IMG/VR virus record: IMGVR_UViG_2609459844_000009
Coordinates: 1 to 14,206 of that record
Direction: 5' to 3' (one strand)
Length of the DNA: 14,206 bases
Source of the DNA: a virus
Taxonomy: Duplodnaviria > Heunggongvirae > Uroviricota > Caudoviricetes
Below are positions 1-14,206 of the stretch, in pieces. The notes beneath the pieces are model-generated. The model saw only the letters and a list, made by a program, of their open reading frames with translations, did no database searches and was not told the DNA's origin. The number at the start of each line of letters is the position of its first letter. The stretch's first letter is position 1. The translations under genes were made by a program, and so were the position numbers.

Positions 1-1155
1 ATGCTCACCGTTAAGCAGATTGAAGCAGCAAAGCCGAAAGAAAAACCATACCGCCTTCTCGATGGTAATGGCCTGTACCTTTATGTTCCTGTATCCGGGA
101 AAAAGGTATGGCAGCTTCGCTACAAGATTGACGGTAAGGAGAAAATCCTGACCGTCGGAAAATATCCGCTAATGACTTTGCAGGAGGCAAGAGATAAAGC
201 ATGGACCGCGAGGAAAGACATCTCGGTTGGCATCGATCCGGTAAAAGCGAAAAAGGCTTCGTCTAACAACAATTCCTTTAGTGCGATTTACAAGGAATGG
301 TACGAGCACAAGAAGCAAGTCTGGTCAGTAGGCTATGCAAACGAACTTGCCAAAATGTTTGACGACGACATTTTACCCATCATCGGCGGCCTTGAAATTC
401 AGGATATTGAGCCGATGCAACTGCTGGAAGTAATCCGCAGATTTGAAGATCGCGGTGCAATGGAGCGAGCCAACAAAGCCCGCAGAAGATGCGGAGAGGT
501 TTTCCGTTACGCTATTGTCACCGGAAGGGCTAAATATAACCCGGCACCTGACCTTGCAGACGCCATGAAAGGATACCGCAAGAAGAACTTCCCGTTTCTT
601 CCTGCAGACCAGATCCCGGCATTCAACAAAGCACTGGCAACATTTTCAGGAAGTATCGTATCGCTTATTGCGACTAAAGTTTTACGCTACACCGCCCTAA
701 GAACGAAAGAACTTCGTTCCATGCTATGGAAGAACGTCGATTTTGAAAACAGGATTATCACCATCGACGCCAGTGTGATGAAGGGTCGCAAGATTCATGT
801 AGTACCGATGTCAGACCAGGTAGTTGAACTTCTCACTACGCTAAGCTCAATCACCAAACCAGTATCAGAGTTTGTTTTTGCCGGGCGCAACGATAAGAAG
901 AAGCCAATCTGCGAGAACGCGGTGCTACTTGTGATCAAACAAATCGGCTATGAGGGTCTGGAAAGCGGTCACGGATTCAGGCATGAATTCAGCACGATTA
1001 TGAACGAGCACGAATGGCCTGCTGATGCTATTGAAGTGCAACTGGCACATGCCAACGGCGGATCTGTGCGCGGGATTTACAACCATGCTCAGTATCTCGA
1101 TAAACGCAGAGAAATGATGCAGTGGTGGGCGGACTGGATTGATGAAAAGGCGTGA
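1..1155 (+). CDS. intS: Tyrosine recombinase, P4-family prophage integrase (IntS-like, argW-targeting)
   Basis: 384-aa ORF starting at window position 1. N-terminal arm-binding region (KQIEAAKPKEKPYRLLDGNGLYLYV) typical of P4-type integrases; C-terminal catalytic signature HGFRHEF ... LAH ... RGIYNHAQY. Recalled as near-identical to E. coli KplE1/CPS-53 IntS. A TorI-like excisionase lies at the opposite end of the element, as in KplE1. Confidence 0.9.
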   Translation: MLTVKQIEAAKPKEKPYRLLDGNGLYLYVPVSGKKVWQLRYKIDGKEKILTVGKYPLMTLQEARDKAWTARKDISVGIDPVKAKKASSNNNSFSAIYKEWYEHKKQVWSVGYANELAKMFDDDILPIIGGLEIQDIEPMQLLEVIRRFEDRGAMERANKARRRCGEVFRYAIVTGRAKYNPAPDLADAMKGYRKKNFPFLPADQIPAFNKALATFSGSIVSLIATKVLRYTALRTKELRSMLWKNVDFENRIITIDASVMKGRKIHVVPMSDQVVELLTTLSSITKPVSEFVFAGRNDKKKPICENAVLLVIKQIGYEGLESGHGFRHEFSTIMNEHEWPADAIEVQLAHANGGSVRGIYNHAQYLDKRREMMQWWADWIDEKA

Positions 1156-1244
1156 TGCTTTCCATCTTTCCATTCGGATTCCTCCTACCAGATTTACCTG
1201 GAGAGTGATATAGTTAATCTTTTAAAAAGTTACATGGGCTTTGC

Positions 1245-3080
1245 ATGTCTTCTAAATTTAGGAATGATATTAATGGGCTAAGGGCTCTAGCGGTCGCAGC
1301 TGTTATTATATATCACTTTAATAGCTCTTATATGTCAAGCGGATTTGCAGGAGTGGATGTTTTTTTTGTTATCTCTGGATACCTGATGACATCCATAATA
1401 GTTAATAAATTCAATGATGGTAATTTCAAGCTTTTTGATTTCTACCTATCCAGAGCAAAAAGAATCATACCATCATTAATAATAGTCTGCTTTGCTCTGT
1501 TGATTTTTGGTTTTTTATTAATAGAACCTGGTACTTATCAGCTAATAGGTAAGCATTCGGCAAGCTCTCTTACATTCATATCAAACTTTACCTATCTATT
1601 TGAATCTGGATATTTCGACCAATCATCCAAAGAAAAGTTTTTGCTGCACACTTGGTCACTATCTGTTGAGTGGCAGTTCTACTTGATTTATCCATTTATA
1701 ATAATATCAATTTCTAAGCTGTTTGGCATAACAAGGCTGCGAGCGGCGCTAGCGTCTCTATCGGTGATTGGATTTATAATTTCTTTAATTATATCAAAAG
1801 AAGATATATCTTTATCTTACTATATGTTTTTTAGCAGAGCATGGGAGATGATAGTAGGTGGAGTTATTTTCTTGCTTCCATCAATAATGACGCAGACAAA
1901 GAGACTGACTTTAGAAATAATAGGGTGCATTGGTATAATATTATCATTTTTTGTTTTTACTGAACAAACGTTATGGCCGGGGACTCCAACTCTAATGCCT
2001 GTAATGTTCACTGCATTGGTTATATATGCTAATAATGAAAAATCAATTCTATCTGCAAGGCCAATTCAATTAATCGGTAAGATATCATATTCTATATACT
2101 TGGTGCATTGGGTAATATTAGTATCATTAAAAAAACTGTATATAGACTTTGGGTTTGCTGCATACCTGATATCAACATTAATGCTATCTTTTGCATTATA
2201 TCACTTTGTTGAAAAAAGGCGTAGCTTTGGGAAAATATGGGTTTATTTGTATGTTTTATGTTTTCTCATTTCGCTGGCCGTCTCCTTGAATGGAGTCAGA
2301 TCGCGAACAAGTGGGTCAGATGATTACAGAATGAGCCTTCAGGAGTTCAGAGACAAGTACGAAGGAAGTGATGGAGTAAAGGATAGCCTCAAACCTATCT
2401 TCTTCAACTCTAACGAAGATGACTTTGAATATATATTAATTGGAAGTAGCCATGCAAAGCACTATTACTCATATATAAAATCAAAAGGTTTGAAAGTGGT
2501 GTCGCTTGCGCTTGATGGGTGTAACTCAACAAAAAACAGGTATACCAACTACCGTCCGGAATCATGCGCCCCTCGCTATGATCAAGTGGTAAAATTCATC
2601 AATGACCATCCTGGCAAAAAGGTAGTTTGGGCTACTTTGTGGACTTGGGTTGGGATCCCTAGAGATAGCTCCAAAAATAATAATGAGAGTACTCTAGATG
2701 TGATAAATGAAGAAGTAACTGCATTTATAGGTGACATTAATAAATCAAATAGTGACATTTATCTTATAGGTGACGTTCCGGGCACTAAGAAACTAACATT
2801 TGAATGCATGGCTAAAAATTCGCTGCCTTTGAATAGATATTTCAATTTGGGCGGATGCAGTGACAAGCAAAAGTATGAGGACGATGGTGTTGATGCAACA
2901 CTATCATCCATAGCTAGAAAATATGATAACGTTCACTTTATAGGGGCTGCAAACTCCTTGTGCTCATCAGGTGAATGCATGTTGATATCTGAAGGTAAAC
3001 CAATTTATACAGATTATGGTCACCTTTCAAAATATGGTGCAAATATAGTCGGAAAGTATATATTCAGTAAAGTTAATTAA
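1245..3080 (+). CDS. O-antigen O-acyltransferase, acyltransferase-3 (AT3) membrane domain fused to C-terminal SGNH domain (OafA/Oac-like)
   Basis: 611-aa ORF. N-terminal AT3 hallmarks (GLRALAVAAVIIYHF with conserved Arg and His; VDVFFVISGY) and many predicted TM helices; C-terminal SGNH-like motifs (ILIGSSHAKHY; DYGHLS near the end). Very AT-rich versus neighbours, no strong SD. Occupies the slot where KplE1 carries gtrABC-like genes and Sf6 carries oac. Confidence 0.85.
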   Translation: MSSKFRNDINGLRALAVAAVIIYHFNSSYMSSGFAGVDVFFVISGYLMTSIIVNKFNDGNFKLFDFYLSRAKRIIPSLIIVCFALLIFGFLLIEPGTYQLIGKHSASSLTFISNFTYLFESGYFDQSSKEKFLLHTWSLSVEWQFYLIYPFIIISISKLFGITRLRAALASLSVIGFIISLIISKEDISLSYYMFFSRAWEMIVGGVIFLLPSIMTQTKRLTLEIIGCIGIILSFFVFTEQTLWPGTPTLMPVMFTALVIYANNEKSILSARPIQLIGKISYSIYLVHWVILVSLKKLYIDFGFAAYLISTLMLSFALYHFVEKRRSFGKIWVYLYVLCFLISLAVSLNGVRSRTSGSDDYRMSLQEFRDKYEGSDGVKDSLKPIFFNSNEDDFEYILIGSSHAKHYYSYIKSKGLKVVSLALDGCNSTKNRYTNYRPESCAPRYDQVVKFINDHPGKKVVWATLWTWVGIPRDSSKNNNESTLDVINEEVTAFIGDINKSNSDIYLIGDVPGTKKLTFECMAKNSLPLNRYFNLGGCSDKQKYEDDGVDATLSSIARKYDNVHFIGAANSLCSSGECMLISEGKPIYTDYGHLSKYGANIVGKYIFSKVN

Positions 3081-3087
3081 ACCAAGA

Positions 3088-3114
3088 CCCCTCAATCCTG
3101 AGGGGCTTTTTTTT
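3088..3114. terminator. Bidirectional rho-independent terminator between convergent acyltransferase and tailspike genes
   Basis: Hairpin CCCCTCA-atcc-TGAGGGG followed by T8 on the + strand; the tailspike stop codon overlaps the T tract on the other strand. Confidence 0.8.
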
Positions 3115-5347
3115 ACGCGGTTAATATCCAGCGCTTATCATAATAATGCATTAATCCTTGTGATGTTATTTTCATATGCACGATTGCTTGAGAAAAAGCG
3201 GCGGCAGCAAAACTTACCCTAAGAAATGTTTGTGAGCCGTTATTGTATTTAGATGTGGTAATGCCGGTTAGGTTTTTACTTCCAGCAATCATATTTGACC
3301 AAACATTACTTGAAGCTAAAGTGGCTTGATCTTTTGCTGATACGCTTACCAATATAACTCCACCGGTCTCACCAGTTCCGCCCAATCCATTCTGATTAAT
3401 TGGCATAATCTTTAACTCTGCTGCGATAAAACCCCCCCCCGTATATGAAGCTTCTTCACCAATCGTTGAAATAAGAATATCAATATTTCTTCCATATGGT
3501 ACCAAAACCGTCGCATCTTCAGTTAATACCTGAGTGTATGTGGCGTTTTTAGCTTGGTGTTTAGCGGAAAGAACCACACCATCAGAACCAGTTCGAAAGC
3601 CGATTCCAGTATGTTCCCCGTAGTATTTACCGTAATAATTTATTCCTCTGACGTCAAATTCTGAAATAGCACTTCCGGTTGTGTTTTTTACGAAAATGAA
3701 CTTATCACCGAAGGTGAAACCTCGGCACTGATATTTATTCGTTGGATCGGCAATGTTTTTAAGAAAGGAAATTCCCTTATAGGCTTTAACGTACCCACTT
3801 TCGAAACGAAAGTTCACAGGACCCTTTTGTTCATTTGCTGGTAATTCAACAAAATGAGTAACCGTGGCTCCGCTAGGGTCCTGAATCCAGCAGGAAATGT
3901 TCTCAACGGTTGCAACTGATTGGCCGTCCTCTTCATTGTAATCTGCAAAATCAAGAGCGTGCGTACCATTTATCCCTTCGATACCCATACCTTTGATAGA
4001 AAGAGAGCGGAATCCATAGAACTTATGAGGTAAAGAACAACCATCTGCAGCAATATTATTTACGGCAACGTACATTAATGGCCCCGGAGCCTTTACAGGT
4101 TCATAGGTTTCTCTATCAATCACAGCCCCCCAAAGATAACCAACACCACATTGCGAAGACCAAATTGCAGAGACATCAGTACTTGTTCCCCATATTGCAA
4201 ATCCGTATGTGCAATCATACATAAAAATATTTTGTATGACGCTGACAAATGGACACGATGGGAGCGCAAATTTATAATGGTAGAAGTCTATATTAGTTAG
4301 CTTCCAGTTCTTTCCGCCACCATACGTGGTGCTAGGACCACTTAGCAAAAGTGGACACCCTGTATATTCAGAGTCAGCGTTTCTGAAACCAATATTTTCA
4401 ATATGTAAATTATGACCCCATGAGGACATGTAAAAACCGCCATTTCCTGACGTATAAATCAAACTCTGCCTCGGGTTATCACCCTTAATATTTAAGGTGA
4501 TGCCTTCCCATCTAAACTGGCTAATGTCAATTTGAGTGTTACCAATATATATAGGCTGGTCTATAAAAATAGGAAGTTTAGTTAGATAAGCTTTATTAAG
4601 TGCTAATCCATCATTTGTTACACCTGTTAAATCGACGCCACCCATGCTTGGCGCTTTTGGGTAAGGCGTTCCCTGAATAGTACTTCCATCAATATAAGGA
4701 GCATCCATCCACGCTCCAAACATACGTGGTGTTACGTACCCCTTACCTTGAAGATCACGTTTCCAGCGTTTACCACCCACAGTGACAATGACCATGCCGT
4801 TATCATCTGCAGAAGTAGAATCTGTGAAATCGGCCACAAACAGACCACCACCAGTATCGCCTGATACTGTCGGCTTCATGCCTGTGGTGTGGAAGTCGAC
4901 GAAAATCTTTTGCTGATCTCGCTCAGGCTCAATTGTCCTTAACATTGCTATATCAGGGCATGTCCCGATGTATTTAAGACCGTCTTCCCCTGATAGAGAT
5001 ACTTTAAGCTGATCAGGATCATATTTAAGAACATTCGGAAAATAGAACTGCTGTGCACCATATGCATCATAAACAGCCATAGAATGGCCTTGCACAGTTA
5101 CGAATTTAGCAATCTGCCCATTATATACCGGATATCCAGCGGCGTTAATGATGATTGGTTGCGAAACAGGAATGTGAGAGCCATCTTCGTTCTCCACATA
5201 AACCTGAATCTGGTTTTCAGGATTTACCGGGTCAGTGTCAATTTTACCGATATAAATTTTGCCATTGGCTACGGCTTTAAAAGAACGAGCCATAGTGAAG
5301 AGTTGCGATGGCATACTCACTACAACATTGGCTGTAATGTCTGTCAT
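3113..5347 (-). CDS. Tailspike protein: P22 gp9-like N-terminal head-binding domain with divergent receptor-binding/enzymatic body
   Basis: 744-aa ORF. First ~110 residues ([11 protein letters not shown] ... [33 protein letters not shown] ... [12 protein letters not shown] ... NVLKYDPDQ) closely match the recalled P22 gp9 head-binding domain; the rest is unrelated to P22 gp9 by eye and Gly/Thr/Asn-rich as expected for a beta-helix. SD GGAG ~9 nt upstream of ATG. Confidence 0.85.
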
Positions 5348-5483
5348 TTAATTTGCTCCAGATGCAAGGAATCGCCGCAGCATGGCTACGGTTGGTATTT
5401 GTTTGGTTTTTGAACTACGAAAATTTCGTAGTGCTATCCATCAAGGCCATCGCCGCTTAGTTGCTGCGGTGAATTTTGGGCAT

Positions 5484-5506
5484 AAAAAAACCCAGCCGAA
5501 GCTGGG
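5484..5506 (-). terminator. Rho-independent terminator downstream of ant (minus strand)
   Basis: On the minus strand: CCCAGC-ttcg-GCTGGG followed by T7. Lies between the ant stop and the tailspike start, like the terminator after ant in the P22 immI operon. Confidence 0.75.
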
Positions 5507-5525
5507 TCGTTGCGTTGGTTATCTG

Positions 5526-6428
5526 TCAGTAGTTATGTACTGAAGGAGGTAATTCTTTATTCTTAAGTCTCATCCATGCGGAAAGATTCGTTGGTCCGTC
5601 TGGCTCATTGATATCAACATCTCGTGAGTGATTGATTAAAACGTCTCTCGCTATATCGATAATACGGGAGAACTCATAACCGCAGTCATGACATCTGCCG
5701 GAATAGTTCGATTGAATTTGTTTCAGCGCCGGATACAGTTCGCGGAATAATGCCTGTGAACGGTTAGCATAATCCCATAGCCATACAAGGCTGTTTGCTT
5801 CTTTTTCAGAAAGCTCGTTGGTTTTCTTCTCTTGTTTGCCGATGAACTCGCCTTCAAGCACTACCCTGTGGATGTACTCTACGGCTTGCGGTATCTGAGA
5901 TGCATCAAGCTCTTCAATACTTTCCACATTGAAACGCTGATGAATCATTGCATAAGCTTCTGGGTACATTAGATGCTTTTTGCTGACCAGCATATTTACA
6001 GCATCACGAAGCGGAGTCCTGTCATCAACAGATGTTTTCTTACGTGCATTTTCTGCCTTTCCCTTTGTCCAGTAGTCATGCAGCACAGTAAAGCATTCTT
6101 CCTGGTACTGAATCAGTTTATCGCGGATGTCAGCACGAACTTTCTCAGGGTTGATGCTGAACAGCCATCCATTTAACTTCTTCAAAGGAAGGCAGAGTAG
6201 CTTACGAAGCTTACCATCAGCGGCAACCATATTCATATGAATACAGTTGAACTTATCTAGTTGTTTCATAAGTTTTTGTTGCTGAGTACCCCAGCTCATT
6301 CCGAGGTTTTCAACGATTGGCTTCATCGCAACATATGCAACTCCGGCAGCCATGGCGGTGATAATCTGCTGACCATTGAAAGGCACGTAAGAGGTGTTCA
6401 CTGCTTCTAAAATTGCTATACTATTCAT
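5526..6428 (-). CDS. ant: Antirepressor Ant (P22 immI-type)
   Basis: Start chosen at the internal ATG ([22 protein letters not shown]...) preceded by GGAGA; 300 aa, the length of P22 Ant. Position (arc ... ant, then tailspike, same strand) matches P22 immI. The ORF-track start at 6458 is a TTG without an SD. Confidence 0.8.
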
Positions 6429-6490
6429 GTTGGTTTTTCTCCAAGGATTTACCGACAACCGAAGCCCTGACTGTTACCGCAGTTGGGGCT

Positions 6491-6760
6491 TCAACGTTTT
6501 TCCACTTCATTTTGAATTTGCTTAAGTAGCATATTTGTCTCGTCAAGCCTCTTGTTAATACGGTCAAGGCTTTCTACTAAATCGTTATGTGCATGTGATA
6601 CTTCGTAATTTGAGACTGATTTCTTTTCCTCTATCGTCTTTGTCAATCGTTCCCCTGATTGATACATATTGATTAACGATGTAAAAATCACGAGCAAGCA
6701 AACTACAATGATTGCGCCAGACAAAAATTGTAAAGAACGATCAAGCAATGACACCTTCAT
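6491..6760 (-). CDS. Small membrane-anchored coiled-coil protein, function unknown (inserted between arc and ant)
   Basis: 89 aa with one N-terminal hydrophobic helix (LQFLSGAIIVVCLLVIFTSLI) then a charged helical region. Start ATG overlaps the arc stop (ATGA) and is preceded by GAGGGG, indicating translational coupling to arc. P22 has no gene at this position as far as I recall. Confidence 0.65.
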   Translation of the reverse strand: MKVSLLDRSLQFLSGAIIVVCLLVIFTSLINMYQSGERLTKTIEEKKSVSNYEVSHAHNDLVESLDRINKRLDETNMLLKQIQNEVEKR

Positions 6761-6909
6761 ACCGTAATCCCCTCTCTCTTCAGACTGTCCAGCAATCGCT
6801 TAATCACTTCCGAGTTAAACGACCGGCATTCTTCTTTGGCCTTTCCTGTAATCGCATCTTTTAGCGACTGAGGCATTCTCACCAAAATTCTGCTAACTTC
6901 TTTTTCCAT
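6757..6909 (-). CDS. arc: Arc-like ribbon-helix-helix repressor
   Basis: 50 aa from the internal ATG (MEKEVSRILVRMPQSLKDAITGKAKEECRSFNSEVIKRLLDSLKREGITV); aligns with recalled P22 Arc (RxPxxLxDxxxxxAxEExRSxNSE ... KxEG). Divergent from mnt. Confidence 0.8.
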   Translation of the reverse strand: MEKEVSRILVRMPQSLKDAITGKAKEECRSFNSEVIKRLLDSLKREGITV

Positions 6910-7018
6910 ATCGCCACCACGTGAGTTATTGTGAATCACAAACATATCACCGTGACTATATCAAGTCAAAATTTTTTTGAATACACTGTGATATCAATGT
7001 GATTATCACGGTGTAAGT
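6910..7018. promoter_or_regulatory. immI divergent promoter/operator region between arc and mnt
   Basis: Contains CACGTG (6917-6922), TGTGAATCACA (6930-6940), ATCACCGTGAC (6946-6956) and its inverted partner ATCACGGTGTA (7005-7015), and the perfect palindrome TGATATCA (6988-6995). The CACCGTG/CACGGTG core resembles the centre of the recalled P22 Mnt operator (CCACGGTGG). Confidence 0.6.
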
Positions 7019-7273
7019 ATGACGAAGGTTAGAGACATAGCCCCATATAGCGTAAGAATGCCAGATAGCCTCAAGCGCGACCTGACCATAAGAGCATCGA
7101 AAAACGGACGCTCATTAAATTCAGAAATAGTTATGATCTTGCAAGCTGCTATTGATGAAGAAAAATCACCAAGATCAATAGAAGGTTTTGCTCAACAAGA
7201 ATCTGAAAAATTTAGGGAGGCTCTTCTTAAGACTCTCAGCAGCATGTACGGAGAAGATAAAAAACCCACCTGA
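7019..7273 (+). CDS. mnt: Mnt-like ribbon-helix-helix repressor
   Basis: 84 aa; N-terminal RMPDSLKRDLTIRASKNGRSLNSEIV matches the recalled P22 Mnt RHH motif (RMPxxxxxxLxxRAxxNGRSxNSE). Divergent from arc. Confidence 0.8.
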   Translation: MTKVRDIAPYSVRMPDSLKRDLTIRASKNGRSLNSEIVMILQAAIDEEKSPRSIEGFAQQESEKFREALLKTLSSMYGEDKKPT

Positions 7274-7285
7274 CGGTGGGTTTTT
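7259..7285. terminator. Bidirectional rho-independent terminator shared by mnt and the convergent 330-aa gene
   Basis: A6 - CCCACC-tgac-GGTGGG - T5; the mnt stop codon lies in the loop and the stop of the minus-strand gene (7287) abuts the T tract. Confidence 0.8.
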
Positions 7286-7286
7286 C

Positions 7287-8279
7287 TTATTCTTTATCTT
7301 TTAAGTCTATGGTTCTTTGCCCAATAACCTTTTCATCTATGTATTTCTCATACTCTTCTCGAGTATCAGAAACCATTGCAATACCAGTAACCTTACCTAT
7401 TTGGGTTCTAAGAGCCTTAACTCCAACCTCTGATAAAAACTGGTGTATTTTATCGTTTTTGCTGCCTTTCTCTTCTTTTGAAGTTTTTGCTAAATTAAAT
7501 ACCTTTCCTTCACTTCTGGCTAATGGGTAATAAATGTGATCTATCGTAAGATATTTAAACGCCCATGGTCGCCCTCTAACTGGTTTGTCTATACCATACA
7601 AACGATACCAATGCTCATAAAGTTCAGGGGTGAACTCTCTTTCATACTCACGAGCCTCTTCAGCAACATATCGCTTATATGCTTGAATTACCTCTTCTTT
7701 TGTTCTGTCATACCCTGCCAAAGCATAAACAAGCCCCTGAATGCCCGCCTTGGCTGATGCATCAATAATGATTCTGGCTTGCTTAGCAATCCCTTCCTGA
7801 CTGGAAAGCAACTTACCTTCAGCTTTAGCATTAGAGATTGCTCGACATAAATCAATTAATATTGTTACATCGTAGCCATGTATTACAGGATTAGCTGGAG
7901 TGTTCGTGCCCGCCTGTTTGTATTGAAAAATAAGAGGATTTTCAAGTTTTGCCCTTAATTCATGCCCAATATACTGAGAAATAGTTTTCCCCTGAATAAA
8001 CTTTGGCAACCTGCTGCCACCTTCGCCAAGACCAATCGCTTCTCCCATGCCTCTCTGGCTAATAACGGCAGTTTTGTTATCATCATTTAACACATAGCAC
8101 TCAACATCAATCCCGAATTCATGCTGGAACGATCCCTTATGCGTGGCAATTAATGGTTTATCCTTCCATCTTGCAGCCGCTGCTTTCTTTGCTATTTCAG
8201 AACGCTGCTCTTTAGTCAGCGACTTTGCGCGAGCGATCCCGCCCTTAGCTTTCCCTTCACTACTTTTCTTTTCTGTCAT
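7287..8279 (-). CDS. Hypothetical protein with Lys/Ala-rich basic N-terminal tail; unknown function, possible DNA-binding regulator or exclusion/defence factor
   Basis: 330-aa ORF (MTEKKSSEGKAKGGIARAKSLTKEQRSEIAKKAAAARWKDK...). AGGTG ~9 nt upstream of ATG; TTGCTT-18 bp-TATAAT sigma70-like promoter on the minus strand (+ strand 8312-8341). AT-rich relative to early genes. I could not assign a family; there is a vague resemblance to phage Bro-N/P63C-type regions that I cannot substantiate. Confidence 0.75.
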   Translation of the reverse strand: MTEKKSSEGKAKGGIARAKSLTKEQRSEIAKKAAAARWKDKPLIATHKGSFQHEFGIDVECYVLNDDNKTAVISQRGMGEAIGLGEGGSRLPKFIQGKTISQYIGHELRAKLENPLIFQYKQAGTNTPANPVIHGYDVTILIDLCRAISNAKAEGKLLSSQEGIAKQARIIIDASAKAGIQGLVYALAGYDRTKEEVIQAYKRYVAEEAREYEREFTPELYEHWYRLYGIDKPVRGRPWAFKYLTIDHIYYPLARSEGKVFNLAKTSKEEKGSKNDKIHQFLSEVGVKALRTQIGKVTGIAMVSDTREEYEKYIDEKVIGQRTIDLKDKE

Positions 8280-8434
8280 AATGCAAGCACCTTGTTGTGA
8301 TATATGCTTGCATTATATACACTGTACACACATACAAGCAAGCATAAAAACAAAACAAAATGCTTGCATTACAACCGCGCTACTCCAACTACACATTATC
8401 ATCTGGTATCCTGCACAAAACTAAGGAGGTTGGT
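8280..8434. promoter_or_regulatory. Divergent promoter region with four copies of the 10-bp palindrome ATGC(AA/TT)GCAT (putative operator array)
   Basis: Sites at 8281-8290 (ATGCAAGCAc), 8304-8313 (ATGCTTGCAT), 8336-8345 (AAGCAAGCAT) and 8360-8369 (ATGCTTGCAT); centre-to-centre spacings ~23, 32 and 24 bp. They overlap the RBS/start, -10 and -35 of the 330-aa gene's predicted promoter. Confidence 0.6.
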
Positions 8435-8764
8435 GTGCTTGAATGGTTTCTGTTGGCTGCATTAGTCGTTTCTGGTTTGGTGTATGAGTATCGAATGCAC
8501 TCTCTAACAAAAAAAATAGGAATTCTAGAAAACGAATATTGTGCTCTCAAATCCTCACTGGAACGTGAGCAAGGGGACTTAAAAATCTCTCTGTCTAGCA
8601 TTGAGCGTTCTATAGAGAGCTTAGAGGATAAGGTTGATCGTATAAAGAATGAGGATATTCATGATATTAAGGACGACATATCCTTCTTAAAATCTTGGTT
8701 GAAAAATGTTGGGAAAATTGCCACATCAACACGAGATAAGCTCAATCCATCCATGGATGACTAA
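8435..8764 (+). CDS. Small membrane-anchored coiled-coil protein, function unknown
   Basis: GTG start 5 nt after a perfect AGGAGG SD (8424-8429); ~109 aa with N-terminal hydrophobic helix (LEWFLLAALVVSGLVY) then a charged heptad-like helical region. AT-rich. The upstream ATG at 8360 lies inside operator site 4 with no SD, so I prefer the GTG. Confidence 0.55.
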   Translation: MLEWFLLAALVVSGLVYEYRMHSLTKKIGILENEYCALKSSLEREQGDLKISLSSIERSIESLEDKVDRIKNEDIHDIKDDISFLKSWLKNVGKIATSTRDKLNPSMDD

Positions 8765-9016
8765 TTACTCCTGTGCCATTCCGCTTAGCGATGCCACAAT
8801 TCCAGCTCTTGCTAAACGCTGGAACTCTTCGTTTCCTAGTGCCTCGCGTATTGCTTTTACGGCGGCCTTATTTGCCATAAATCTGCGTTCCGCCGCCGCT
8901 AATGCACCATCACTTGCCCCAACCTTAACTGCCTTTGTTGCCTCTTGAACAGCCTTTTCAATAGCGTAACGACCGCTTCTAGTTGCGGATAATTTCGCTA
9001 TCGCTCCTTTTGCCAT
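8765..9016 (-). CDS. Ala-rich small ORF, possibly the C-terminal remnant of a larger (late/ejection-type?) gene
   Basis: 83 aa from the first ATG, but the frame stays open upstream to ~9142 with no start codon and no convincing SD, suggesting a 5'-truncated remnant. Its stop codon abuts the stop of the convergent gene at 8764. Confidence 0.3.
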   Translation of the reverse strand: MAKGAIAKLSATRSGRYAIEKAVQEATKAVKVGASDGALAAAERRFMANKAAVKAIREALGNEEFQRLARAGIVASLSGMAQE

Positions 9017-9061
9017 TGCATCAATTGCCCCACCTGCAGCGCCAACGGGCCATACGCGCCA

Positions 9062-9556
9062 GTTATTTCTATTGGGGCAGTATTCTTTGACCCGAATACC
9101 GGAGAAACAGGAGAAGAGTTCTCGGTAAATATCTCGCTTGAGTCATCAATGCGATATCGGGCGCGTCCTGACGCTTCAACGATTTTATGGTGGCTGGAAC
9201 AGAGTGAAGAAGCCAGAAAATCGCTAACCAGCAACACTCAGGAGCTTTCAACGGCTCTTTCATGGTTATCTGAATTCATCATAAAGAACGCTAACCACAA
9301 ATTCGTTCAGGTTTGGGGGAATGGAGCATCATTTGACTGCGTTATTCTCCGCAACAGTTATTCGCTGACAGGGCAGCCAGTTCCGTGGCAGTGGTGGAAT
9401 GACCGCGACGTAAGAACAATCGTCGAACTTGGGAAGGTAATAGGATTCGACCCTAAGCGAGATATGCCATTCAAAGGAACTCGCCACAACGCGCTTGATG
9501 ATGCCATTCACCAAGCCAAATACGTTTCAGCGATCTGGAAAAAGTTAGCTAAATAA
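9062..9556 (+). pseudogene. DnaQ/DEDD-like 3'-5' exonuclease (Rv2179c-like phage exoribonuclease family), 5'-truncated
   Basis: Frame is open from 8903; first ATG at 9149. Translation from ~9062 (VISIGAVFFDPNTGETGEEFSVNI ... WWLEQSEEARKSL ... VQVWGNGASFDCVILRNS ... GTRHNALDDAIHQAKYV) matches this family as I recall it, including the motif III H-x4-D. The expected N-terminal DxE motif (I.D.ET.G) is absent in all three forward frames upstream. Confidence 0.5.
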
Positions 9557-9572
9557 TCAACAGGAGAAAACC

Positions 9573-9866
9573 ATGCCAGCGCCTCTGTATGGTGCGGATG
9601 ACGCGCGCCGCTGTTCCGGCAATTCCGTATCGGAGGTGCTGGATAAATTCAGAAGAAACTACGATCGGATAATGTCGCTACCACAGGAAACGAAAGAGGA
9701 AAAGGAATTTCGCCACTGTATATGGCTTGCAGAGAAAGAAGAACGCGAGCGAATTTACCAGACATCAATCCGACCATTCCGCAAAGCCACATATACCCAC
9801 TTCCCTGAAATTGACCCGCGCCTGCGTAATTACCGCTCACGCTATGGCGCTATCAGTAATGACTGA
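9573..9866 (+). CDS. Hypothetical phage early-region protein
   Basis: 97-aa ORF with GGAGA SD 7 nt upstream of ATG; tightly packed same-strand gene array. Confidence 0.6.
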   Translation: MPAPLYGADDARRCSGNSVSEVLDKFRRNYDRIMSLPQETKEEKEFRHCIWLAEKEERERIYQTSIRPFRKATYTHFPEIDPRLRNYRSRYGAISND

Positions 9867-9876
9867 GGAATTAACA

Positions 9877-10167
9877 ATGAAAACAATGAAGCTAAACATC
9901 GACCTCGGCAAATACGTTATTACCGGAACCAAACACGACCTGATTCTTAATGAAAGAGGAATTATCAAAGAAGGTGAGAATGCAGGGAAAGAAACACTAA
10001 GCCGTATCGGTTATTACAGCAAGTTTGAGCATCTGGTCAAAGAGTTATGCAACCGTGAAATCCTGTTATCTCAGGCGCAGACGCTACAGGATATTCAGCA
10101 GCATATCGAAACTTTAGGTATGTCACTTAGCATGGCTATTGACCAGTTCGTTGAGAGTAAATCATGA
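9877..10167 (+). CDS. Hypothetical phage early-region protein
   Basis: ATG ([13 protein letters not shown]...) 6 nt after GAGGAA, immediately after the upstream stop; the longer ORF-track start at 9727 overlaps the previous gene and is less likely. Confidence 0.6.
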
Positions 10168-10331
10168 GAGGACTTGCATACAATCCCGGCATTCTTCCGG
10201 CAGAAATGATTATTCGCCAACGCGTAAAGCCAATGCCATCGAGAGAGGAATTGCTTAAAAGAAAGAGTTTCGGTTCTGTTAATGACAACAAATATCTGAA
10301 TGCTATGTGGCGCAAAGGAGGCAACCAGTGA
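10164..10331 (+). CDS. Small hypothetical protein (55 aa)
   Basis: ATG overlaps the upstream stop (ATGA) and its own stop overlaps the next gene's GTG start (GTGA), suggesting translational coupling. Below the ORF-track size cutoff. Confidence 0.4.
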
Positions 10332-10582
10332 GTAATTCAGCACGACTACAGCTTGGTTTTTCACCGCTATCAAAAACTATCATGCTGGCAAAAATGCGCG
10401 ATGTTGAAGGTGGACGTATGCGCGTTGGCAATGATCCAGGTCGTGATGTTACCAATGAGGCTGCTCAATTGGTGTGGCGACTGGTCATGGCTGAAGGTGG
10501 TGAGATCGCGCGGGAGCTGGATGATGGTTCTCGCATGGTGTTGAAGGCAGAAAAGCAGGAGGCAACCAGTGAGCCAGATTGA
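10328..10582 (+). CDS. Hypothetical phage early-region protein
   Basis: GTG start 6 nt after AGGAGG; the same 17-nt SD-plus-start block (AGGAGGCAACCAGTGAG) recurs at the start of the next gene. Confidence 0.55.
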
Positions 10583-11012
10583 TTATCAGGCACTGCGTGC
10601 TAAGGCAGAAAAAGCAACGTGTGGCGAGTGGTCGCTCGAATATGGAGAGGGCCGATTTGATGGTGATGATGCGCTAATTCATCGCGAGGCTGCTGGATAT
10701 ATTCCTATTTGCAGAATTGAAGGAGCGCATCCAGAAAGCGGTTTCGATGAAGATTTCCAAATGGAACAGCAGGCCAATGCTGAATTCATCGCCGCAGCCA
10801 ATCCGGCTACCGTGCTGACACTGCTGGACGAGCTGGAAGCAGCAAAAAAGCGCATTGCAGAACTGGAAGCACGGGAAATATCGCTCCCAGAACGTAGCAG
10901 CATGCTTCATCGAACAGATTTTCACGAGGATTACCAAACGGTAATGGCATACAAAGTTTCTGAGGTCATCGCTGCAATCCGCGCCGCTGGCATTCGCATC
11001 AAAGGAGAGTGA
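10569..11012 (+). CDS. Ead/Ea22-like early protein
   Basis: 147 aa; GTG start after AGGAGG. Contains the AANPATVL.LLDELEAA...RIAELE segment that I recall as characteristic of Ead/Ea22-like proteins of lambdoid and P22-like prophages. Confidence 0.55.
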   Translation: MSQIDYQALRAKAEKATCGEWSLEYGEGRFDGDDALIHREAAGYIPICRIEGAHPESGFDEDFQMEQQANAEFIAAANPATVLTLLDELEAAKKRIAELEAREISLPERSSMLHRTDFHEDYQTVMAYKVSEVIAAIRAAGIRIKGE

Positions 11013-11013
11013 G

Positions 11014-11205
11014 ATGAACGGACAAATCTCAATTGTTCGACCGGGAGCATGTGACGATCGCGAGATACGAATGATTATTCGTCTGGCGATGGGGAAAACA
11101 ATAACAGCTCTCATTACTCCAGAAAATCTCGCATTAGCTTTAACCGGAAAGTCAGACCTGCCAGTGGAGCTAAAACTGCGAAATGTTGAGATTAAGGTGA
11201 AATAG
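11014..11205 (+). CDS. Small hypothetical protein (63 aa)
   Basis: ATG 1 nt after the upstream stop; fills the gap in the same-strand operon. Confidence 0.45.
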   Translation: MNGQISIVRPGACDDREIRMIIRLAMGKTITALITPENLALALTGKSDLPVELKLRNVEIKVK

Positions 11206-11207
11206 CC

Positions 11208-11822
11208 ATGACCACTATTACCAAAGAACGTATTGAATTGTTCATTAAAGATCCGCTTGAAAACGGGCTTACTCGTGGCGAACAAATGGAACTGGCACGA
11301 ATTGCACTGGCATCACTGGAACGCGAACAGATTCGCCACGAGCATGCCAAATGGTCTGACTCCACATTTGGCTGCGTTGGCCCCATTGGTCCGCTGAAAC
11401 ATCTCTCAAAAGAGGCTCTGGAAGCCGCAGCCGAACCTGACGATCTCAGCGAGTGGGCTGATATGCAGTTCCTGTTGTGGGATGCACAGCGCCGTGCTGG
11501 TATCAGTGATGCTGAAATTACCGCTGCTATGGAAGATAAATTGAAGATCAACATGAAGCGCCAGTGGCCTGAACCAAAAGATGGTGAGCCTCGCTTGCAC
11601 ATTAAAGAACCCGGCAACTCTCCGGTAACTCCGGATGGTTGGATAAGCTGTAGTGAGCGAATGCCAAGCGAAGAAGATGTTTTGGTTTATTGCTCAGACA
11701 CAAAAGAGCAGATGGTAGGGTTTCACAAAGGTAAAGGGTTATTTCAATTCTTTTACATGAATGGTGTTGAGGGGGTATGTGAGCCGTCACACTGGATGCC
11801 GCTACCAGAGCCTCCACTTTGA
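11208..11822 (+). CDS. DUF550/DUF551-type prophage protein (MazG-like dATP/dGTP pyrophosphohydrolase-type N-terminal region, DUF551 C-terminus)
   Basis: 204 aa; the C-terminus (...CEPSHWMPLPEPPL) matches the recalled DUF551 ending (HWMPLPEPP); the N-terminal region resembles the DUF550 module often fused to it. Confidence 0.5.
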   Translation: MTTITKERIELFIKDPLENGLTRGEQMELARIALASLEREQIRHEHAKWSDSTFGCVGPIGPLKHLSKEALEAAAEPDDLSEWADMQFLLWDAQRRAGISDAEITAAMEDKLKINMKRQWPEPKDGEPRLHIKEPGNSPVTPDGWISCSERMPSEEDVLVYCSDTKEQMVGFHKGKGLFQFFYMNGVEGVCEPSHWMPLPEPPL

Positions 11823-11919
11823 AAGCGAAGCTTATACATATCTTTTACATCAGCAATCTATTGTTAATCTCCAATCAATGTTACGTTGTCATCTCACTCA
11901 TGCTTTGGAGGTAGTGATA

Positions 11920-12098
11920 TGTCTTGTCCAAAATGCGGTTCTGGAAATATTGCAAAAGAAAAAACAATGCGTGGATGGTCTGGTGATTATGTGTGCTGCG
12001 ATTGCGGATACAACGACTCTAAAGACGCATTTGGAGAGCGTGGTAAAAACGAGTTTGTTAAAATTAATAAAGAACGCGAAGGCAACGAAAAAAGCTAA
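11920..12098 (+). CDS. Small zinc-ribbon protein
   Basis: 59 aa from the ATG 7 nt after GGAGG (MSCPKCGSGNIAKEK ... CCDCGYND): two Cys pairs in C-x2-C ... C-x-C arrangement. The longer track ORF (11886) lacks an SD. Confidence 0.55.
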
Positions 12099-12163
12099 TT
12101 TATTTATTCATATATTAAAACAATGTAACCAATATTCGAATTGAAGAACTGAAAGAACACCAA

Positions 12164-12184
12164 GCCGCCTGATGGCGGTTTTTT
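12164..12184 (+). terminator. Rho-independent terminator ending the early-gene array
   Basis: GCCGCC-tgat-GGCGG followed by T6. Confidence 0.7.
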
Positions 12185-12194
12185 ATTGCCTGAT

Positions 12195-12210
12195 TTGCAG
12201 GTTCGATTCC
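12195..12210 (+). other. tRNA-Arg (argW) T-arm-derived 16-nt fragment just upstream of torI
   Basis: TTGCAGGTTCGATTCC matches the T-stem/T-loop part of E. coli argW as I recall it (...AATTGCAGGTTCGATTCCTGCAGGGGACACCA); similarity ends at 12211. Confidence 0.5.
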
Positions 12211-12229
12211 CTATTCGGAGATAGCACTC

Positions 12230-12430
12230 ATGCAACACGAACTACAACCTGATTCACTGGTTGATTTGAAATTCATCATGGCTGATACTGGCTTCGGTAA
12301 GACCTTCATCTATGACCGGATTAAGTCCGGCGACCTGCCAAAAGCCAAAGTTATCCACGGGCGAGCAAGATGGTTATATCGTGACCATTGTGAATTCAAA
12401 AATAAGCTCTTAAGCCGCGCCAATGGGTAA
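12230..12430 (+). CDS. torI: Excisionase / recombination directionality factor, TorI-like (AlpA/Xis family winged-helix)
   Basis: 66 aa (MQHELQPDSLVDLKFIMADTGFGKTFIYDRIKSGDLPKAKVIHGRARWLYRDHCEFKNKLLSRANG), recalled as matching KplE1 TorI. It sits at the opposite end of the prophage from int and next to the att remnant, as in KplE1. Confidence 0.8.
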   Translation: MQHELQPDSLVDLKFIMADTGFGKTFIYDRIKSGDLPKAKVIHGRARWLYRDHCEFKNKLLSRANG

Positions 12431-12503
12431 AATAGCGGGTAAAATATTTCTCACATCTAAAAAACACCATTCCAATCAATCCCCTGCTGCTTCAAGTAGA
12501 TGT

Positions 12504-12518
12504 CTGCAGGGGACACCA
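12504..12518 (+). other. argW 3'-terminal fragment (…CTGCAGGGGACACCA): candidate attR core / right prophage boundary
   Basis: Exact 15-nt match to the recalled 3' end of tRNA-Arg argW including the CCA end, with no upstream tRNA body; non-coding host-like DNA follows. Confidence 0.6.
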
Positions 12519-12958: not shown

Positions 12959-14206
12959 CTATATTGCTGAAGGTACAGGCGTTTCCATAACTATTTGCTC
13001 GCGTTTTTTACTCAAGAAGAAAATGCCAAATAGCAACATCAGGCAGACAATACCCGAAATTGCGAAGAAAACTGTCTGGTAGCCTGCGTGGTCAAAGAGT
13101 ATCCCAGTCGGCGTTGAAAGCAGCACAATCCCAAGCGAACTGGCAATTTGAAAACCAATCAGAAAGATCGTCGACGACAGGCGCTTATCAAAATTTGCCA
13201 CGCTGTATTTGAAGACGGATATGACACAAAGTGGAACCTCAATAGCATGTAACAGCTTCACTAATGAAATAATCCAGGGGTTAACGAACAGCGCGCAGGA
13301 AAGGATACGCAACGCCATAATCACAACACCGATAAGTAATGCATTTTTTGGCCCTACCCGATTCACAAAGAAAGGAATAATCGCCATGCATAGCGCTTCG
13401 AGTACCACCTGGAATGAGTTGAGATAACCATACAGGCGCGTTCCTACATCGTGTGATTCGAATAAACCTGCATAAAAGACAGGAAAAAGTTGTTGATCAA
13501 AAATGTTATAGAAAGACCACGTCCCCACAATAAATATGACGAAAACCCAGAAGTTTCGATCCTTGAAAACTGCGATAAAATCCTCTTTTTTTACCCCTCC
13601 CGCATCCGCCGCTACGCACTGGTGATCCTTATCTTTAAAACACATGTTGATCATCATAAATACAGCGCCAAATAGCGAGACCAACCAGAAGTTGATATGG
13701 GGACTGATACTAAAAAATATGCCGGCAAAGAACGCGCCAATAGCATAGCCAAAAGATCCCCAGGCGCGCGCTGTTCCATATTCGAAATGAAAATTTCGCG
13801 CCATTTTTTCGGTGAAGCTGTCAAGCAAACCGCATCCCGCCAGATACCCCAGGCCAAAAAAGAGCGCCCCCAGAATTAGACCTACAGAAAAATTGCTTTG
13901 CAGTAACGGTTCATAAACGTAAATCATAAACGGTCCGGTCAAGACCAGGATGAAACTCATACACCAGATGAGCGGTTTCTTCAGACCGAGTTTATCCTGA
14001 ACGATGCCGTAGAACATCATAAATAGAATGCTGGTAAACTGGTTGACCGAATAAAGTGTACCTAATTCCGTCCCTGTCAACCCTAGATGTCCTTTCAGCC
14101 AAATAGCGTATAACGACCACCACAGCGACCAGGAAATAAAAAAGAGAAATGAGTAACTGGATGCAAAACGATAGTACGCATTTCTGAATGGAATATTCAG
14201 TGCCAT
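12959..14206 (-). CDS. cscB: Sucrose:H+ symporter, LacY-family MFS permease (CscB)
   Basis: 415-aa ORF with 12-TM MFS architecture; N-terminus (MALNIPFRNAYYRFASSYSFLFFISWSLWWSLYAIWLKGHLGL) recalled as E. coli CscB. The csc locus is known to lie next to argW in sucrose-positive E. coli. The window ends exactly at its start codon. Confidence 0.85.
   Translation of the reverse strand: MALNIPFRNAYYRFASSYSFLFFISWSLWWSLYAIWLKGHLGLTGTELGTLYSVNQFTSILFMMFYGIVQDKLGLKKPLIWCMSFILVLTGPFMIYVYEPLLQSNFSVGLILGALFFGLGYLAGCGLLDSFTEKMARNFHFEYGTARAWGSFGYAIGAFFAGIFFSISPHINFWLVSLFGAVFMMINMCFKDKDHQCVAADAGGVKKEDFIAVFKDRNFWVFVIFIVGTWSFYNIFDQQLFPVFYAGLFESHDVGTRLYGYLNSFQVVLEALCMAIIPFFVNRVGPKNALLIGVVIMALRILSCALFVNPWIISLVKLLHAIEVPLCVISVFKYSVANFDKRLSSTIFLIGFQIASSLGIVLLSTPTGILFDHAGYQTVFFAISGIVCLMLLFGIFFLSKKREQIVMETPVPSAI

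Follow-up and report, generated by a model that had tools for sequence, protein, structure and literature searches.

The recombination module of the Escherichia coli K-12 prophage KplE1 is common to the phages HK620, Sf6 and CUS-3 (PMC2951348), and excision of KplE1 from K-12 has been demonstrated experimentally to depend on IntS and TorI (Panis et al. 2010, PMC2951348). On the HK620/Sf6-type map, the attL end of the prophage carries int, cargo genes, the tailspike gene and immI, and the attR end carries the distal PL operon and xis. The positions of int and torI at opposite ends follow from the location of attP between xis and int and are the normal layout of argW phages of this type (PMC2951348).

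We analysed a stretch of 14,206 nucleotides, hereafter called the window. Positions 1-12518 are a prophage remnant at argW, approximately 12.7 kb from core to core, and this remnant is a defective P22-like (Lederbergvirus, HK620/Sf6-type) prophage located beside the csc sucrose locus. An initial annotation had described a compact defective prophage with a KplE1-type recombination module, a description borne out by the gene content and coordinates obtained with Pfam and PHROG, which are as follows.

1-1155, plus strand: int, attL-proximal IntS-type tyrosine integrase, 384 aa (Pfam Arm-DNA-bind_3, Phage_int_M and Phage_integrase)
1245-3080, plus strand: AT3-SGNH acyltransferase, OafA/Oac-like, 611 aa, a low-GC moron (Pfam Acyl_transf_3 and SGNH, full length)
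3113-5347, minus strand: tailspike, 744 aa, with a P22 head-binding N-terminus and a rare receptor-binding domain (Pfam Head_binding, 1-113)
5526-6428, minus strand: antirepressor Ant, 300 aa from the ATG (Pfam P22_AR_N and P22_AR_C)
6491-6760, minus strand: 89-aa ORF between arc and ant (phrog_27312, 1-89 of 89)
6757-6945, minus strand: Arc-like repressor of immI (Pfam Arc)
7019-7273, plus strand: Mnt-like repressor of immI (Pfam Arc/RHH)
7287-8279, minus strand: P63C-domain protein, 330 aa (Pfam P63C and phrog_2384)
8435-8764, plus strand: 109-aa moron ORF (phrog_5962, 1-109 of 109)
8765-9044, minus strand: relic of gene 16 (DNA transfer/ejection protein), last 280 nt only (phrog_770, positions 623-666 of 668)
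9043-9044, no strand: proposed deletion junction, with the 2-nt microhomology CA (gp16 homology ends at 9044, exonuclease homology starts at 9043)
9043-9556, plus strand: 5'-truncated gene for a 3'-5' exonuclease, Rv2179c/RNase T-like, with a residual ORF at 9149-9556 (Pfam Rv2179c-like, profile positions 47-177 of 177)
9573-9866, plus strand: abc2, anti-RecBCD protein 2 (Pfam Anti-RecBCD_p2, 1-97 of 97)
9877-12144, plus strand: small early-left (ea) ORFs (Pfam and PHROG matches; gene calls in the identical contig L008)
12230-12430, plus strand: torI, excisionase/RDF (phrog_66, excisionase)
12504-12518, plus strand: attR core, the duplicated 3' end of argW (exact match to K-12 pawZ)
12959-14206, minus strand: host flank, cscB sucrose/oligosaccharide MFS permease (NCBIfam TIGR00882)

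The integrase is identical to K-12 IntS (385 aa) at 376 of 384 residues and has the same length in the intact-phage contigs L094 and L095, and the product of torI matches K-12 TorI at 66 of 66 residues; int and torI are thus intact at opposite ends, as had been annotated. The proposed attR proved to be real: its 15-nt core, CTGCAGGGGACACCA, lies 74 nt beyond torI, all phage homology ends at 12518, and the same core sequence is present in attP of the phage contigs L093 and L095. The cscB flank beyond it was also found in three other loci (L001, L003 and L090). The attL site and argW lie just upstream of position 1 and are visible only in the identical contig L008 (Logan, SRR1186618), where the order is yfdC, argW, attL, 176 nt upstream of the int ATG, and where int lies immediately downstream of argW and attL and reads away from the tRNA gene. 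The attL core in L008, CTGCAGGGGACGCCA, has one mismatch (A-to-G) with attR and with every other locus examined. Because int, torI and both att sites are present, the remnant may still excise as KplE1 does.

The acyltransferase gene has a GC content of 34-40% and is also present in the 40.5-kb phage contig L093; its homologues are 605-620 aa long, and just 38 members make up the nearest cluster, P0001. Judging from the sequence, the acyltransferase may still modify the O-antigen when expressed from its own promoter. The tailspike is also 744 aa long in the contigs L093-L096, and its receptor-binding part had no match of at least 85% nucleotide identity in complete E. coli genomes. The acyltransferase and the tailspike receptor module together had no near match among these genomes; they form a rare allele pair that could mark an unusual O-antigen specificity. 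In the adjacent immI region, ant has the same length in L093, the Mnt protein of L093 has 84 aa and carries Repressor_Mnt, and a terminator-like hairpin follows mnt at 7260-7285. The gene for the P63C protein, found at the same position in L005, L001 and L092, stands where other P22-like phages carry sieA, and the moron ORF is called at 109 aa in L008, L005 and L001. The reported retention of immunity genes applies only to immI (ant, arc and mnt); immC is absent.

The ea ORFs of the right arm comprise DUF5405, DUF2737, DUF7446, Ead/Ea22, a 63-aa ORF, dATP/dGTP-PPHyd with DUF551, and an Eag-like/phrog_2945 ORF. No capsid, terminase, portal, scaffold, tail-needle, lysis, replication or c2/cro immC gene was detected among the window ORFs and their Pfam and PHROG matches, and no ejection protein was found whole. 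The earlier statement that morphogenetic, lysis and replication genes are missing was thus correct, apart from the 280-nt relic of gene 16. The right-arm genes are separated from their PL promoter, which has been lost, and a search of the plus strand between 6700 and 9700 gave no sigma-70-like promoter; because PL is gone, these genes are probably silent.

The two arms meet at one clean junction, where the terminal 280 nt of gene 16 run into the exonuclease gene at its nt 36, the parental sequences being ...GCGCCA|CCCGC for gp16 and ...GGGCA|ACGGG for the exonuclease. Positions 8880-9044 match the gp16 3' ends of many prophages at 100% identity, and the relic can be aligned to 9011 in L001 and to 9044 in L005 and L092. 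On the other side, homology to the intact exonuclease gene (L001, 15626-16174) begins at nt 36 of that gene; lacking the first 35 nt, the gene in the window therefore lacks DEDD motif I. The view that the retained genes are intact accordingly holds for the full-length genes, including those for the tailspike and acyltransferase, but not for the gene 16 relic and the 5'-truncated exonuclease gene.

Outside the junction, the left arm can be aligned collinearly with intact relatives and has the gene order of prophage ON470589; identity is 98.5% to L093 across window 1-5392 and 99.5% to L005 across 6757-9044. The PL-distal regions of L001, L003 and L093 run collinear with the right arm (9043-12518), and attP of L093, between xis and int, reproduces both ends of the remnant. 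We propose that the ancestor would have been a prophage of approximately 40 kb with the order attL, int, cargo, tailspike, immI, late genes, lysis, nin, replication, immC, PL operon, xis, attR, in which one microhomology-mediated deletion of approximately 28 kb would have brought nt 36 of the PL-operon exonuclease gene up against the 3' end of gene 16, leaving the attL-proximal and attR-proximal arms. Such a single internal loss from a P22-like prophage very probably accounts for the remnant, and the surviving genes would be those nearest the two prophage ends because the middle, approximately 28 kb, was lost in one deletion. No direct parent with the same arms in undeleted form was recovered, and comparison with each intact phage that was found shows the arms to be mosaic; one deletion is therefore inferred from collinearity rather than from a parent and derivative pair. 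The intact state of the retained genes would reflect a recent deletion.

Prevalence was assessed in complete genomes and by a few contig look-ups. Neither the element (at window coverage of at least 80%) nor its junction occurred in any of 5,426 complete E. coli genomes; in these and in phages, the two halves of the junction match separately. The junction 28-mer CCACCTGCAGCGCCAACGGGCCATACGC had no exact match in the genome contigs searched, and the junction was found in only one other contig, L008, reported from two samples. The remnant is rare and is probably a recent, single-deletion derivative. Absence of the junction from complete genomes, together with a microhomology of just 2 nt, might suggest an assembly chimera, in which late genes and the PL operon of an intact prophage were mis-joined, but this is very unlikely: the independent Logan contig is 100% identical to window 1-11655, across the junction, analogous junctions occur in closed genomes (L089 and L090), and a 2-nt overlap is too short to cause a k-mer mis-join. 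It is even less credible that the window holds a purpose-built compact mobile element, satellite or PICI-like, that parasitises P22-like helpers. Although its small size, int, xis and att sites and its tailspike and antirepressor genes would suit such an element, it has truncated gene 16 and exonuclease relics at the join and no packaging, replication or capsid-redirecting genes, its arms are approximately 98-99% identical to ordinary phage arms, and it does not belong to a conserved element family.

The initial annotation had favoured domestication rather than random decay, on the ground that most surviving genes could benefit the host. On that reading, host selection would keep O-antigen acylation, the tailspike, immI, abc2 and the ea genes, and int/torI, and the composition would be non-random. 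Every retained full-length gene is indeed open and equal in length to its phage counterpart, the acyltransferase is of a moron type plausibly useful to a lysogen, and argW remnants that keep int, tailspike and torI recur. However, map position and one deletion fully predict the composition, and an apparently intact 40.5-kb phage has these genes at approximately 98.5% identity, leaving little time for decay, so that intactness is expected without invoking selection. The element is absent from the 5,426 complete genomes and so is not conserved across the strains or lineages there; its right-arm genes have no PL and no sigma-70-like promoter upstream on the plus strand, two scar genes (the gp16 relic and the truncated exonuclease gene) persist, and no known defence family is present, PADLOC giving no match to the P63C protein, the 109-aa ORF, the 89-aa ORF or the ea ORFs. 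Moreover, sister remnants retain other subsets: the left arm of L007 consists of int, acyltransferase and tailspike only, and L001 additionally keeps genes 16, 20 and 7. We therefore regard domestication as improbable and a single internal deletion as the preferred explanation; the gene set is what one such deletion leaves, and the remnant is an ordinary dead prophage without a sign of retention for host benefit. The impression that only useful genes survive can thus be an illusion produced by prophage map geometry. Codon differences between the window and L093 (synonymous/nonsynonymous) numbered 44/3 in int, 20/7 in the tailspike gene and 21/16 in ant and record evolution as phage, not evolution after the deletion; only one version of the remnant is known (window and L008). 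For the same reason, dN/dS of the retained genes across strains would not be meaningful.

At the 5' end of the exonuclease gene, a conserved phage gene, two breakpoints separated by 53 nt recur, and the right endpoint of the deletion coincides with one of them. Two events, that of the window included, end at nt 36, and nt 89-92 (ATAC) is the endpoint in 9 independent remnants, representing at least 9 microhomology-mediated deletions. The latter affected P22-like and lambdoid prophages at argW, the lambda attB, the sbcB site and other sites, and one of them extends in the other direction and reaches into the host gene torS. Exonuclease nt 88-93 and the parental left partners have 3-5 nt in common (ATA, ATAC, AATA or TAC), as is the case for TAC at the torS junction; a homology-free cut with a 4-nt stagger was withdrawn as an explanation in view of this sharing. 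We tentatively suggest, as a possibility somewhat short of an even chance, that a site-specific DNA end repeatedly forms at these breakpoints and seeds prophage-inactivating deletions. If so, prophage grounding would be partly sequence-programmed and not random, and the breakpoint, if mechanistic, would offer a concrete sequence for the experimental study of prophage inactivation.

One candidate cause is a sequence-specific nuclease, from a defence system or a homing endonuclease, possibly active in induction or superinfection; another is a structure-induced replication stall. As to a hypothetical homing-endonuclease immunity, an HNH gene lies downstream of the exonuclease gene in a single locus, L006, which has a CCTGAG variant beside the hot position; this variant had no match in IMG/VR, and no further co-occurrence of HNH and exonuclease genes was found. 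The nick motif of Gabija GajA, TNNNC^GGGNNA (PMC8136825), can be placed on the bottom strand at nt 91-81 and, if its T is disregarded, on the top strand at nt 35-45; the nicks that it predicts fall 2-4 nt off the junctions and the motif is frequent, and on this sequence match GajA/Gabija would be a lead only. Folding of the exonuclease 5' region as single-stranded DNA predicted a weak hairpin at nt 39-87 with the hot positions at its feet (z = -2.2), which as a modelled cause is not compelling. No Chi sites were found near the variable left endpoints, and inspection of the hot positions by eye gave no convincing match to a type I-E or I-F PAM, a common E. coli restriction site or an IS end or target motif.

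Among known systems, CPS-53/KplE1 of K-12 (10.2 kb) occupies the same argW site with the same 15-nt core, has intS at attL and torI at attR, is similar in size to the remnant in the window and likewise lacks immC. The two share 96.4% nucleotide identity in int and 98.5% in torI-attR and have nothing else in common, which agrees with the initial annotation that their cargo differs: CPS-53 carries gtrABC-like yfdGHI, tail-fibre fragments (tfaS, yfdK and yfdL) and yfdM-T, whereas the window carries the acyltransferase, a P22-type tailspike, immI, abc2 and ea genes. The right flank is dsdC in K-12 and cscB in the window. Whole-element alignment, proposed at the outset, thus gave only int and torI-attR for CPS-53, and any single P22-like phage matches just 14-29% of the window, because of mosaicism and the rare acyltransferase and tailspike receptor-binding domain. 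The module order xis-attP-int-O-antigen-modification gene-tailspike-ant-arc-mnt-(sieA slot)-16 is shared with the lederbergviruses HK620, Sf6, CUS-3, N7 and vB_EcoP-611R6. P22-like temperate phages have the same int, abc2 and ea genes (94-97% nucleotide identity) but are 38-46 kb long and carry full morphogenesis, lysis, replication and immC functions, all four of which the window lacks.

The metagenomic phage contig L093 (JGI 3300076355, 40,520 bp) has the same int-acyltransferase-tailspike block (98.5% nucleotide identity over 5.4 kb, with equal gene lengths) and the same attP as the module of the window. It is apparently complete, with a c2-like repressor, a Rad52-like protein, SSB, a full 182-aa exonuclease and genes 16, 20, 7 and 14, and differs from the window in carrying sieA in place of the P63C gene and in its ea set. 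Defective P22-like prophages at argW are common, and the window holds a further case, of little import as such. The argW remnants L001 (NZ_CP098183, 16.2 kb), L003 (13.3 kb), L007 and L010 (8.4 kb) and L090 (NZ_CP103329) have the same two-arm architecture, in which an internal deletion has likewise taken out immC and the genes for replication and lysis; L003, L007, L010 and L090 have a truncated exonuclease gene, whereas L001 keeps an intact one and ssb. The other argW remnants measure 8.39, 8.44, 10.2, 13.27 and 16.16 kb with internal endpoints that differ, and those with the two-arm architecture are distinguished from the window by their deletion endpoints and by their tailspike and cargo alleles.

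The window was mapped from an ORF listing together with Pfam and PHROG scans, which bore out the gene content described in the initial annotation with only small corrections.

Features of the window (coordinates, strand where assigned, description):
1-1155, + strand, int (384 aa)
1245-3080, + strand, AT3-SGNH acyltransferase (611 aa)
3113-5347, - strand, tailspike with P22 head-binding domain (744 aa)
5526-6428, - strand, ant (300 aa)
between ant and arc, 89-aa ORF
6757-6945, - strand, arc
7019-7273, + strand, mnt
7287-8279, - strand, P63C-domain gene (330 aa)
8435-8764, + strand, 109-aa moron
8765-9044, - strand, gene 16 relic
from 9043, 5'-truncated 3'-5' exonuclease gene (residual ORF 9149-9556)
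9573-9866, abc2
to 12144, a run of small 'ea' ORFs
12230-12430, torI
12959-14206, - strand, host gene cscB

No tRNA genes were found within the window, and GC drops to 34-40% across the acyltransferase gene.

The window resembles gene 16, which encodes a DNA transfer protein, as far as 9044, with 8880-9044 100% identical to many prophages, and exonuclease homology begins at 9043. In L001 (NZ_CP098183, an argW remnant), where this gene is whole and 549 nt long, that position corresponds to nt 36; the parental sequences at this join have only CA in common. The arm left of the join has collinear counterparts in intact relatives: L093, a phage contig of 40.5 kb that is apparently complete (JGI 3300076355), matches 1-5392 at 98.5% identity, L005 (a lambda attB locus) matches 6757-9044 at 99.5%, and the order of the ON470589 prophage matches this arm (int/acyltransferase/tailspike/ant/hyp/arc/mnt/P63C-like/hyp/gene 16). 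For the arm to the right, the collinear segment in L001, L003 (another argW remnant) and L093 is the distal PL operon. Judged from these alignments, one deletion would explain the gene content of the element (1-12518). With the 40.5-kb relative as a yardstick, about 28 kb would have been lost, comprising lysis, nin, replication and immC, gene 20 and the late genes upstream of it, and the proximal PL operon with N, kil, ssb and the recombinase gene, which is Rad52-like in relatives including L093; the retained genes would simply be those closest to attL and attR.

The genes int and tailspike, which had been described as intact, are full-length, as are the acyltransferase and ant: their lengths equal those in the phage contigs L093-L096, and they differ from L093 by a few codons only; acyltransferase homologues span 605-620 aa. 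Gene 16, of which a relic is left, and the exonuclease gene, in which the loss of the first 35 nt has removed DEDD motif I, are scars. With PL gone from the element, no promoter is obvious for abc2, the ea genes and possibly torI; on the + strand at ~6700-9700, a consensus scan, which is weak evidence, detected nothing promoter-like.

Public assemblies matched with the residual 135-aa exonuclease ORF, our starting sample, included numerous distinct remnants that have the exonuclease gene joined, at one and the same nucleotide, to unrelated DNA. Two less biased samples comprised 78 IMG/VR and 22 metagenome loci, anchored by a 27-28-mer downstream of the site, and 156 complete genomes with the exonuclease gene. 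The breakpoints concern the 5' end of this conserved phage gene (window 9043-9150; L001 15626-15775, where the gene is whole) and were located in the window and in the loci L002, L003, L005, L007, L009, L011, L039, L051, L089 and L090. Among the loci sampled, which included ~240 intact copies, junctions in the gene's 5'-most 98 nt fall at two positions only, nt 89-92 and nt 36; one more junction was found among the complete genomes, near nt 260 (H220). Two events used nt 36, that of the window (identical in L008; gene 16) and that of L011 (sheath gene, another integration site). Nine independent events, at several integration sites, used nt 89-92 (ATAC).

Events at nt 89-92 of the exonuclease gene:
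L002, remnant at the sbcB site
L003, left partner gene 4/10 region; argW
L005, left partner gene 20; lambda attB
L007/L010, left partner ninB; argW
L009, left partner gene 14 region
L039/L105, left partner gene 10/26; lambda attB
L051/L104, left partner portal gene
L090, left partner N gene; closed genome NZ_CP103329
L089/L123, closed genome NZ_AP027764; exonuclease 5' part retained, deletion rightwards into host torS

The undeleted versions of six left partners each continue with ATA, ATAC, ATACC, AATA or TAC, and TAC is shared at the torS junction, so the nt 89-92 events are microhomology-mediated deletions re-using one exonuclease position rather than joins without microhomology. Joins at the two breakpoints have 2-5 nt of microhomology. 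No Chi sites were found near the partner ends. The GajA nick motif (PMC8136825) overlaps both positions, yet the nicks would fall 2-4 nt off, and both positions lie at the feet of a weak ssDNA hairpin (nt 39-87, z = -2.2). The recurrence is an observation, and any mechanism for it is conjecture.

In several prophages that are otherwise intact (L004 ~6740, L006 ~6590, L055 and L065), short homopolymer runs (GGGG/TT) in the 5' region of the exonuclease gene have 1-nt indels, which likewise produce the 135-aa ORF; these could be genuine frameshifts or errors of sequencing. Where ssb meets the exonuclease gene, 46 nt (L001 15572-15617) are 100% conserved in unannotated DNA of many E. coli genomes without the exonuclease gene (H150-H159), perhaps as a mosaic boundary in lambdoid phages. 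The closed-genome argW prophages L001 and L090 have internal deletions of their own, joining a gene 14 relic to PL genes (L001 14528-15114) and a gene 4 relic to a dnaB-like gene (L090 4027-4318); at least three separate scars lie within the single L090 prophage.

Domestication, which the initial annotation had proposed from the surviving genes, is unsupported because this composition would follow from a single, recent deletion in a P22-like prophage of the ordinary kind, and we found nothing that demands such a reading. None of 5,426 complete E. coli genomes covers at least 80% of the window or carries the junction, and the element's own 28-mer had no matches in one-genome-per-species contigs; the sole other copy, L008, was reported from two samples, and the element exists in a single version. 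Remnants at argW differ in internal endpoints and size (8.39/8.44 kb in L007 and L010, 10.2 in K-12, 13.27 in L003, 16.16 in L001), the pattern that independent internal deletions would give. We infer a likely common constraint, that survivors must shed the lethal core yet keep the flanking host genes. The element itself adds little, being an ordinary P22-like prophage after one deletion; the recurrent breakpoint alone may merit follow-up.

The low-GC (34-40%) acyltransferase and tailspike receptor-binding region (1245-4360) had no nucleotide match of at least 85% in the 5,426 complete E. coli genomes, and the acyltransferase protein cluster is small (38 members). The pair is also present in L093; the next relatives of the acyltransferase have 80-86% identity, followed by others at ~53% (Dryocola, Aeromonas, Proteus). 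Between mnt and gene 16 (7287-8764) lie the P63C-domain gene and a divergent 109-aa ORF, in a slot where the P22-like phages L093 and L094 have sieA. PADLOC found no known defence families among the unassigned ORFs of the element, these two included, and a superinfection-exclusion role for them would be a guess from position.

The proposed attR was correct: the K-12 core (pawZ, CTGCAGGGGACACCA) is matched exactly at 12504-12518, and all phage homology ends at 12518. Because the window begins at the int ATG (position 1), attL lies outside it. The Logan contig L008 (SRR1186618), 100% identical to window 1-11655, extends upstream into yfdC-argW-attL, where the core begins 176 nt before the int ATG, giving an element of ~12.68 kb core to core. 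This attL core (L008 677-691) reads CTGCAGGGGACGCCA, while attR and every other attL, attR or attP examined have a core ending in ACACCA. If real, the mismatch would change the argW discriminator base (A73G) and, by making attL differ from attR, might hamper excision; a read or assembly error is the alternative.

TorI is identical to K-12 TorI at 66/66 residues, and the integrase to K-12 IntS (385 aa) at 376/384. According to Panis et al. 2010 (PMC2951348), the KplE1-type module is a conserved part of HK620, Sf6, CUS-3 and related prophages; within it, intS is driven by a dedicated promoter that overlaps attL, and torI forms a separate transcription unit. L093 has the order xis-attP-int-acyltransferase-tailspike, and its attP sequence joins both ends of the window. 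This order and that conservation argue that int and torI at opposite ends, an arrangement rightly described, is the default of the whole phage group and not a feature of remnants. As the initial annotation had stated, the cargo is unlike that of the K-12 cryptic prophage CPS-53 (KplE1), whose yfdGHI, tfaS and yfdK-T have no counterpart in the window. Only int (96.4% nucleotide identity) and the torI-attR stretch (12180-12518, 98.5%) are shared with CPS-53, so the element is KplE1-like solely in its recombination module, and to that extent its reading as a KplE1-type remnant was right.
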